The notes under the pieces were generated by a model. The model worked only from the letters and a program-made list of their open reading frames with translations. It made no database searches and was not told the origin of the DNA. Both the position numbers and the translations under genes were made by a program. Below, piece by piece: positions 668 through 1,322 of a stretch of DNA of 1,551 nt (position 1 is its first letter; the number at the start of each line of letters is the position of its first letter). The stretch is from Escherichia coli (GTDB taxonomy: Bacteria > Pseudomonadota > Gammaproteobacteria > Enterobacterales > Enterobacteriaceae). The DNA lies in assembly GCF_024298765.1 (NCBI RefSeq), contig NZ_CP101221.1; one strand, 5' to 3'.

Positions 668-971
668 CCCCATCGCTGTAACACCGACGGTCTACGACCA
701 CCAACCAGCCGAATAGCTGCCTGTGCCGTGCAAATAGGCTTTGCAGGGGGCTGACGCGGTTCCTAGCGACCTGAAAGCCCCTGGTTAGGGGTATCGGCGC
801 GCCTGACCTCCTGAGAGCCTCTGTAAGCGTTTTTCGCGCCTTCCATGCCCTGACGGGCATTTAAAACCCGTTTCGTGTGTCTGAGAGCTTCTGAGCGCGT
901 TTGAGGGGCTATCTGGCGACTCATCCCCGAAAGAACAACAACGGAATCACCGACAACATGCGAGAGGTGAC

Positions 972-1032
972 ACCGCTCGCCGCAGCCCCAGCGACCGAAC
1001 GTAGTGAGCGAGTGGGCGAGGAAGCGGAAGAG
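972..1032 (-). other. ColE1-type primosome assembly / single-strand initiation (n' site)-like segment
   Basis: The minus strand reads CTCTTCCGCTTCCTCGC...TCGGTCG...GCTGCGGCGAGCGGT. This matches the pBR322/pUC segment CTCTTCCGCTTCCTCGCTCACTGACTCGCTGCGCTCGGTCGTTCGGCTGCGGCGAGCGGT in blocks of 17/17 and 15/15, in the same orientation and order relative to the bom homolog as in pBR322. It contains the AAGCGG hexamer associated with factor Y (PriA) sites. Function here is inferred from homology. Confidence 0.45.
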
Positions 1033-1068
1033 AACCGGAAACCACATTGAGCACGTACGCACTGATGC

Positions 1069-1093
1069 GGGGTGTCGGGGCGAAGCCCTGACC
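1069..1093. repeat. Left copy of perfect 25-bp inverted repeat (GGGGTGTCGGGGCGAAGCCCTGACC)
   Basis: Exact reverse complement of 1298-1322. The two copies are separated by 204 bp (1094-1297), which includes the oriT nic-like segment. Confidence 0.95.
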
Positions 1094-1260
1094 AGACGGC
1101 AAACGGAATATCGTCGCGGGTGACGGTATTACATTTGCACATCCTGTCCCGATTTCTGAGGCGTTTTAGCGGTGAACGGACGGCAAAACCATGATGGAGC
1201 TGTTGAGCGTTGAGAGCGTGAAATCTGGCAAAAATCACGGCTGGCGAGGCTTGTAGCGGA

Positions 1261-1297
1261 ATAAGCCAGTATACACTCCGCTATCGCTACGTGACTG
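1261..1297 (-). other. ColE1/pMB1-type oriT (bom) nic region, orphan (no relaxase in window)
   Basis: The minus strand reads CAGTCACGTAGCGATAGCGGAGTGTATACTGGCTTA, which as I recall it is identical over about 36 nt to the pBR322 bom/nic region. The adjacent repeat copy 1298-1322 matches the pBR322 sequence just upstream (GGGTGTCGGGGCGCAGCCATGACC) with 2 mismatches. The ColE1 MbeA nick is reported within CTGG|CTTA, i.e. between plus-strand 1265 and 1266 here. Sequence and nick position are from memory. Confidence 0.6.
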
Positions 1298-1322
1298 GGT
1301 CAGGGCTTCGCCCCGACACCCC
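1298..1322. repeat. Right copy of perfect 25-bp inverted repeat (GGTCAGGGCTTCGCCCCGACACCCC)
   Basis: Exact reverse complement of 1069-1093, 25/25. Identity stops at both ends (1297 and 1323 do not pair with 1094 and 1068). Confidence 0.95.

Follow-up and report, generated by a model that had tools for sequence, protein, structure and literature searches.

A conserved 40-nt core, rather than a 22-nt direct repeat, is the constrained unit in a non-coding cassette of pKL1-like and other plasmids

In the model for plasmid R1, synthesis of the leading or lagging strand requires a primer at a distance of a few hundred bp from the initiator-dependent origin. In ColE1 the position downstream of the RNA/DNA switch is that of ssiA, or n'-pas, a primosome assembly site on the displaced strand (PMC3167613). 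The small plasmid pKL1, with a reported size of 1549 bp (PMC12839544), has an origin upstream of rep that contains RepA-binding sites and an IHF box (PMC3832669). In pIGRK an ssi-like palindrome is dispensable for replication, and its loss raises the copy number and causes multimerisation (PMC6854812). Finally, pBuzz is reported to contain two oriTs in the absence of a relaxase (PMC9282650).

The stretch of DNA analysed here (the window, 1551 bases in its entirety) is a complete small cryptic plasmid of the pKL1/Col(MG828) group of Escherichia coli. Records of E. coli plasmids match the window with 100% identity, 330 PLSDB entries span no less than 80% of its length, and it shows 94% identity to the 1549-bp plasmid L001 (loci of the comparison set are given by L numbers). 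The region 478-1350 is non-coding and GC-rich (58%). The general layout of the plasmid is as follows:

1-477, + strand: repA, the sole gene, with an HTH_36 domain and a weak RepL match
491-551: inverted-repeat element directly 3' of repA
813-1066, + strand: non-coding cassette common to IncX4, IncX1, IncF and Arsenophonus plasmids
972-1070, + strand: homologue of ColE1 ssiA/n'-pas (PAS-BH), matching ColE1 1308-1405 (74%, E 1e-12)
1419-1466: direct and inverted repeats TGTCGCATCC..GGATGCGACA, just upstream of repA

The repeats at 1419-1466 agree with the description of the pKL1 origin (PMC3832669) and probably correspond to the operator or origin sites of RepA reported for that plasmid. An element 87% identical to that at 491-551 is also found after the bis-like gene of IncX4 plasmids (L003, 5371-5431; L013), and the element occurs after repL in L012 as well; it thus constitutes a second small cassette common to unrelated replicons. 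The plasmid has no relaxase gene and carries two inversely oriented oriT mimics, at 1068-1162 (+ strand) and at 1262-1325. One of these mimics is 89.5% identical to the IncI1 (ColIb-P9) oriT adjoining nikA, and the other is 98% identical to ColE1 bom (window 1262-1321 corresponding to ColE1 1462-1521); the two share a perfect 25-nt inverted repeat (1069-1093/1298-1322). Going by the title of Moran and Hall 2019, pBuzz reportedly also has two inversely oriented oriTs. The plasmid family and the homologies to ColE1-type ssiA and bom are features of already known kinds.

Within the GC-rich region the initial annotation had described an imperfect 22-bp direct repeat around a short palindrome, and had proposed that it could represent either a pair of protein-binding sites or an RNA structural module. 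The elements of this segment are:

811-832, + strand: repeat copy 1, reading CTGAGAGCCTCTGTAAGCGTTT
881-902, + strand: repeat copy 2, reading CTGAGAGCTTCTGAGCGCGTTT
820-860, + strand: conserved 40-nt core, TCTGTAAGCG-TTTTT-CGCGCCTTCC-ATGCCC-TGAC-GGGCAT
827-838, + strand: possible mini-hairpin GCG-TTTTT-CGC, of 3 bp (83% of cells paired)
845-860, + strand: hairpin with a 6-bp stem and a 4-nt loop (96.6% of cells paired)

Both the repeat, with 18 of 22 positions identical at a spacing of 70 nt, and the palindrome ATGCCC-TGAC-GGGCAT at 845-860 are present as first described. The significance of the repeat was evaluated with 200 dinucleotide-preserving shuffles of the window, scored for ungapped direct matches of at least 18/22. 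Such a match occurs anywhere in 4.5% of the shuffles and within 200 nt in 0.5%, and the latter value is also obtained if the GC-rich region 478-1350 is shuffled alone. Since only 0.5% of the shuffles contain a match within 200 nt, pure chance is an unlikely origin, and the repeat somewhat exceeds what chance would give. The similarity stops at 22 nt. Each copy can be divided into two 10-nt units that fit the pattern YCTGNRAGCN, at 810, 820, 880 and 890 (the last being a variant), and a further unit is located at 770; all of these units are on the + strand and none is found on the - strand.

The fate of the two copies was followed in an alignment of relatives, which include pKL1-like plasmids, a 1459-bp plasmid with a different winged-helix protein, RepL plasmids of 1.9-4.2 kb, a 5.2-kb Shigella Rep_3 plasmid, IncX4, IncX1 and IncF plasmids, an Arsenophonus plasmid and a Pantoea-like symbiont contig. 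Across 16 lineages the 5' half of copy 1 (811-820) is variable, with an identity of 0.76, and the 3' half (821-832, CTGTAAGCGTTT) has an identity of 0.92 and lies inside the best-conserved block. Copy 2 has an identity of 0.73 as compared with approximately 0.70 for the flanks, which is the background level. It consists of two 10-nt units, TCTGAGAGCT and TCTGAGCGCG, at least one of which is missing in several relatives. One 10-nt unit, AGAGCTTCTG, is deleted in a slippage-type manner in L012, L036 and L013 (the NC101 IncX4 plasmid), larger deletions are observed in L029 and in L004 (IncX1), and copy 2 is unrecognisable in L034 and L046. The RepA of L029 is 99% identical to that of the window. 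Because the 5' half of copy 1 varies, starting with CTGAAACC in most lineages, the match between the copies drops to 15-16/22, and the 18/22 match is confined to the pKL1 sublineage.

Evidently, the 22-nt repeat is not a conserved pair of sites. A functional pair flanking the hairpin, either iteron-like or bound by an accessory protein, would fit the statistically unusual repeat itself (0.5% of shuffles within 200 nt) and the residual 15-18/22 match in most of the lineages that keep copy 2. Against it, no fewer than five lineages have deleted copy 2 or lack it, and the same DNA segment occurs with four initiator families, which argues against sites specific for a Rep protein. Moreover, the RepA operator-like repeats lie elsewhere, at 1419-1466, and are unrelated in sequence. 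In contrast to iterons, the copies are neither conserved in number and sequence nor tied to one initiator. We therefore regard a functional pair as very improbable; the natural variants already point to its refutation, and the first of the two proposals in the initial annotation is not supported. The caution expressed there, that the similarity might be fortuitous, was reasonable; although statistically unusual, the repeat does not persist as a pair. The conservation in related plasmids that had been suggested as a check is found for the 3' half of copy 1 and for the hairpin, but not for copy 2. Other explanations of the arrangement were considered and rejected. A target-site duplication around a MITE is incompatible with the inner 48 nt, which have no terminal inverted repeats and are present in relatives without copy 2, and a long-range stem around the region (776-782/904-910) lacks a conserved 5' partner in L034, L046 and IncX4.

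The constrained unit is the core at 820-860, and not the 22-nt pair. In its short form this core comprises CTGTAAGCG-T5-CGCGCCTTCC and the hairpin. With identities of 0.91-0.95 per 10-nt block in the 16 lineages, it represents the peak of the conservation profile and the best-conserved stretch of the cassette, equalling the GGAAGCGGAA motif of the ssiA-like part (0.94). The flanks in these alignments are down to 0.57-0.79, and the conservation of the core holds even in copies that are only 70-75% identical overall, namely those of IncX1, IncF, Arsenophonus and the Pantoea symbiont. A covariance model (R1) detects the core in the divergent copies of the Arsenophonus plasmid and of a 30-kb plasmid, with E values from 1e-7 to 2e-9. 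No description of the core, or of its spread across replicon families, was found in the literature surveyed, in which older work was only partly covered.

The hairpin at 845-860 is kept in nearly all relatives. All three one-sided changes in its stem give a G.T wobble on the + strand and an A.C mismatch on the other strand. The loop is free to vary (TGGC, TCAC, TAAG, TTAT), and in L014 a variant with a changed inner stem is observed (ATGCCGC-TAAA-GCGGCAT). In L015, an IncF copy, the hairpin is lost together with its 3' arm. The main hairpin shows no double compensatory change or covariation. In the mini-hairpin at 827-838 two pairs are changed on both sides, as in the IncX1 form ATG-T5-CGT; with only 3 bp, this hairpin is weak and marginal. 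The RNAalifold consensus contains the main hairpin only (-0.46 kcal/mol), and the full 92 nt fold no better than their shuffles (z -0.46). The 49-nt core region 818-866, with two small hairpins, does fold better than shuffled sequences (-8.5 kcal/mol, z -2.7, reached by 2 of 200 shuffles). Thus, of the structural module proposed initially, the small hairpin stands, but a larger conserved structure does not. The conservation of sequence in the core exceeds that of structure; the left arm and the CGCCTTCC flank are nearly invariant.

Two relatives contain rearranged forms of the segment. The 30-kb plasmid L014 carries two direct copies of approximately 180 nt (2043-2220 and 2901-3078) that flank a ccdA-ccdB toxin-antitoxin pair, each copy being equivalent to window 672-849, the left portion of the cassette, and including a variant of the core hairpin. 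In L052 (CP058003.1, 1306 bp) the 24-nt unit CGCCTTCCATGCCCTGACGGGCAT is found at 837-860 of that plasmid, 100% identical and inverted, inside the 3' end of the ORF for a RepA homologue; a divergent forward copy of 823-910 follows approximately 130 nt after it.

The cassette extends over approximately 600-1062 in small plasmids and over 813-1029 in IncX4 plasmids; the segment 811-902 belongs to its 5' part and the ssiA-like element forms its 3' part. It is found on plasmids with four initiator families, i.e., HTH_36/RepL-like RepA, RepL (PF05732), Rep_3 and RPA (PF10134). Wherever a rep gene is annotated nearby, the cassette lies upstream of it and points the same way. Three unrelated iteron replicons have the end of the cassette 100-200 bp ahead of their AT-rich, iteron and DnaA-box arrays:

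L003, IncX4: cassette 3001-3215, iterons 3421-3555
L010, Shigella Rep_3: cassette 2521-2911, iterons 3091-3195
L046, Arsenophonus RPA: cassette 1501-1853, iterons 2014-2235

The segment occurs in 607 of 5426 complete E. coli genomes (∼11%), with 748 of its 752 places on plasmids. Plasmids with RepA homologues but without the cassette also exist (L051, 1240 bp; L053, 1488 bp), so the cassette is not essential for this replicon. Together with the mosaic boundaries of the cassette, the 90-100% identity of most of its copies and the slippage-type indels in copy 2, these plasmids would fit a non-functional passenger, left over from the DNA of a ColE1-like or small plasmid and carried along by the functional ssiA-like site and the oriT; the apparent conservation would then reflect recent horizontal spread and the repeat would be a slippage artefact. 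Such a relic should not, however, keep a core of 0.91-0.95 identity between flanks of 0.57-0.79 even in copies 70-75% identical overall, nor should the core persist without the ssiA-like part, as it does in L014 and L047. We consider a passenger origin unlikely.

A scan of genome contigs with the core pattern yields, apart from chance matches, almost only pKL1-like contigs in implausible taxa. These near-identical contigs of 0.4-1.7 kb (L019-L044) occur in assemblies labelled Streptomyces, Streptococcus, Flagellimonas and Corynebacterium, as well as in assemblies labelled Micromonospora, Rhizobium, Mycobacterium and others; E. coli or reagents are the most likely source of these contigs, as contaminants. 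A search of a phage collection gave only mis-filed plasmids or vector-derived ssiA matches.

The distribution of the cassette also touches on plasmid typing. In a comparison of L001, L006, L007, L008, L011, L018 and L048 with L051-L053, the replicon label Col(MG828) of MOB-suite/PlasmidFinder appears to track the non-coding cassette (∼600-1062) instead of rep. All plasmids that carry the cassette receive this label, whether they encode RepA, RepL or other small proteins, and the plasmids with RepA homologues but without the cassette are untyped. The label thus appears to group plasmids with different initiators, a point of practical relevance for typing.

The 3' neighbour of the core relates the cassette to ColE1. 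The ssiA-like region contains a long hairpin at 973-1036 with the motif GAGGAAGCGGAAG, and five of its base pairs show compensatory changes among 12 distinct sequences, ColE1 included. Window 971-1032 is 100% identical to rop-carrying ColE1-like plasmids (L016), which can be aligned from position 931. That 972-1070 is a structured single-strand DNA element is well supported. The core lies approximately 110 nt upstream of this element on the same strand. The segment 811-902 itself has no match to ColE1 or L016 at E<10, with the exception of a 12-nt match in the hairpin. A motif CTGTRAGCG-N10-30-GCCC-N4-GGGC, derived post hoc after both sequences had been seen, has a single occurrence in each of ColE1 (1540-1578, - strand) and L016. 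The ColE1 segment 1540-1578 lies in the region beyond bom, where the second primosome site, ssiB or PAS-BL, is located. Local alignment of the core with this region gives a score that is reached by 29 of 1000 shuffles for ColE1 and by 228 of 1000 for L016; nhmmer gives E=12, and a covariance model gives E=1.1 for the hairpin only. Homology of the core to ColE1 ssiB was therefore set aside and kept as a lead only, the motif being post hoc and the alignment, profile and covariance model not significant. Homology of 760-959 to the 3' end of ColE1 RNA II, which seemed alignable by eye, was rejected because 140 of 500 shuffles reach an equal score. The best candidate in the whole plasmid for a Xer/cer site, taken as 11-bp XerC and XerD arms 6-8 bp apart, has 8 mismatches in 22 positions, and 62% of shuffles reach 7 or fewer; similarities of 14-18 nt to the ColE1 cer flank (window 1161-1174 and 891-908) are at chance level.

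Several observations bear on the question of whether the region is expressed. The - strand ORFs at 763-1062 and 504-860 have no protein family match and are broken by 1-nt frame-shifting indels in relatives, which indicates that the region is not coding. Public records annotate ORFs across the cassette as 'hypothetical protein', 'rep protein' or 'replication protein'; these annotations are probably spurious. The hairpin could instead be a structural or processing signal in a + sense transcript, such as repA read-through, a primer or a processing RNA. The G.U-compatible changes would fit RNA equally well, the cassette lies downstream of repA in the window, and 931-1060 aligns with the origin-proximal A-run and the ssiA of a ColE1-like plasmid. 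Nevertheless, scans of the region reveal neither a promoter consensus nor a match to an Rfam family, the Rfam RNAI family has no match in the window, and no intrinsic terminator is detected in 780-930. The tail 3' of the hairpin (TTTAAAA) varies among relatives, without a conserved U-tract, and the resemblance to the RNA II 3' end is not significant, as noted above. In addition, the RepL plasmids have a convergent mobA between repL and the cassette, so that there is no common upstream transcript. An RNA element is accordingly judged distinctly improbable.

A further question is whether the core acts in single-stranded or in double-stranded form. The + strand of 760-930 contains nine CTG and no CAG trinucleotides, a difference reached by 3 of 2000 shuffles; homologues from small plasmids retain this bias. 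Together with the wobble changes and the YCTGNRAGC units, both restricted to the + strand, this asymmetry is taken as an indication of strand specificity. On the other hand, conservation of sequence beyond that of structure would also fit a double-strand site for a protein of the host or of a helper plasmid, for instance a nucleoid protein, an accessory factor of the relaxosome or of partition, or a recombination accessory site, without any role in priming. The nearly invariant left arm and flank, the 24-nt unit inverted in L052 and the spacing of the YCTGNRAGC units by 10 nt within each copy are consistent with a duplex site of this kind. It is contradicted by the strand-specific features just mentioned, by the free variation of the hairpin loop (including the variant with a changed inner stem) and by an orientation that, relative to rep and oriV, stays fixed across some six replicon contexts of independent origin, and an XerCD core is not present. 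A double-strand protein site is thus improbable.

The association with unrelated initiators, the fixed polarity beside oriV and the presence of a true ColE1 ssiA homologue suggest a strand-specific, host-dependent accessory role in replication. We infer that the core may have ssi activity, and give about even chances to its serving as an accessory component of a module for strand-specific initiation on single-stranded DNA. In such a module, 811-902 would form the 5' portion of a non-coding cassette that assists replication and relies on host factors. The + strand could become single-stranded when the origin opens or a fork passes beside oriV or, alternatively, upon conjugative entry via one of the two oriT mimics. 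The exposed core could then fold into its small hairpin or hairpins and, together with the neighbouring ssiA-like hairpin, help the PriA primosome and/or the DnaG primase to start synthesis of the complementary strand; that these are the host proteins reading the core is likewise a proposal. The core would be an accessory or second recognition element of this composite module, and the 22-nt repeat would be a by-product of gains and losses of YCTGNRAGC units through slippage, with copy 2 dispensable. The pIGRK palindrome, by analogy, and the post hoc motif at ColE1 1540-1578 are also counted in favour of this proposal. Against it stand the lack of significant similarity to known ssi sequences outside the ssiA-like part, the tiny consensus structure, the occurrence of the core without the ssiA-like part (L014, L047) and the inverted core in L052.

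More speculatively, the core could be an autonomous recognition element for a host factor, possibly a new class of single-strand initiation or helicase-loading signal, that moves as a cassette between unrelated enterobacterial replicons (RepA/RepL, Rep_3, RPA) and is selected independently of the adjoining ssiA; we hold this to be rather unlikely. The repeat itself is ordinary, and it is the core, as a testable cis element, that is modestly interesting. If it were a priming signal, it would mark the start of host DNA synthesis beside the origins of very different initiators, and could serve as a portable part for plasmid engineering or as a target for plasmid curing. The carriers of the segment include IncX4 plasmids, which according to published abstracts are important vectors of mcr-1.

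The segment can be compared with four kinds of known systems. Like iterons and operator repeats, it contains direct repeats of approximately 20 nt in a non-coding plasmid region. Unlike iterons, these repeats are present in two copies only, 70 nt apart and one of them unconserved, and their sequence does not co-vary with the initiator; the true iterons of the related replicons are situated 100-200 bp further on, and the RepA operator-like repeats have an unrelated sequence.

The core resembles the primase-dependent G sites of the phage G4 oric and of R1/R100, the latter downstream of oriR, in that its small, GC-rich hairpin lies on a strand rich in CTG and within a few hundred bp of an origin that needs an initiator. 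The start CTG of G4 is found 4 nt after the hairpin. In the window the first CTG 3' of the hairpin, at 881, comes only after 21 nt, and it has disappeared in L009, L030, L004, L005, L015, L034 and L046; the CTG in the hairpin loop is lost in L009, L003, L004 and L014. A hairpin followed within a few nt by a conserved CTG, as in a G4-type G site, is thus not found, and the poor conservation of the next CTG weakens the reading as a G4-type primase site.

Judged by description, the cassette resembles the palindrome of pHW126/pIGRK-type plasmids, being a non-coding accessory element beside the replication module of a tiny plasmid. Its absence from some plasmids of the RepA family parallels the dispensability of the pIGRK palindrome; the initiator family is different.

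Compared with ColE1, whose ssiA and ssiB are PriA-dependent ssi sites of the phiX174 type, 811-902 shows no significant similarity to ssiA or ssiB by alignment, profile or covariance model, and no RNA II-type origin precedes the elements. Both elements are here on one strand, upstream of oriT, whereas in ColE1 the two sites lie on opposite strands and flank bom. In common with ColE1, however, the plasmid has an ssiA-like element followed by a bom-type oriT, and the short post hoc motif, CTGTRAGCG and then a GCCC-N4-GGGC hairpin, is common to the core and to the AAGCG-carrying strand of the region beyond bom.
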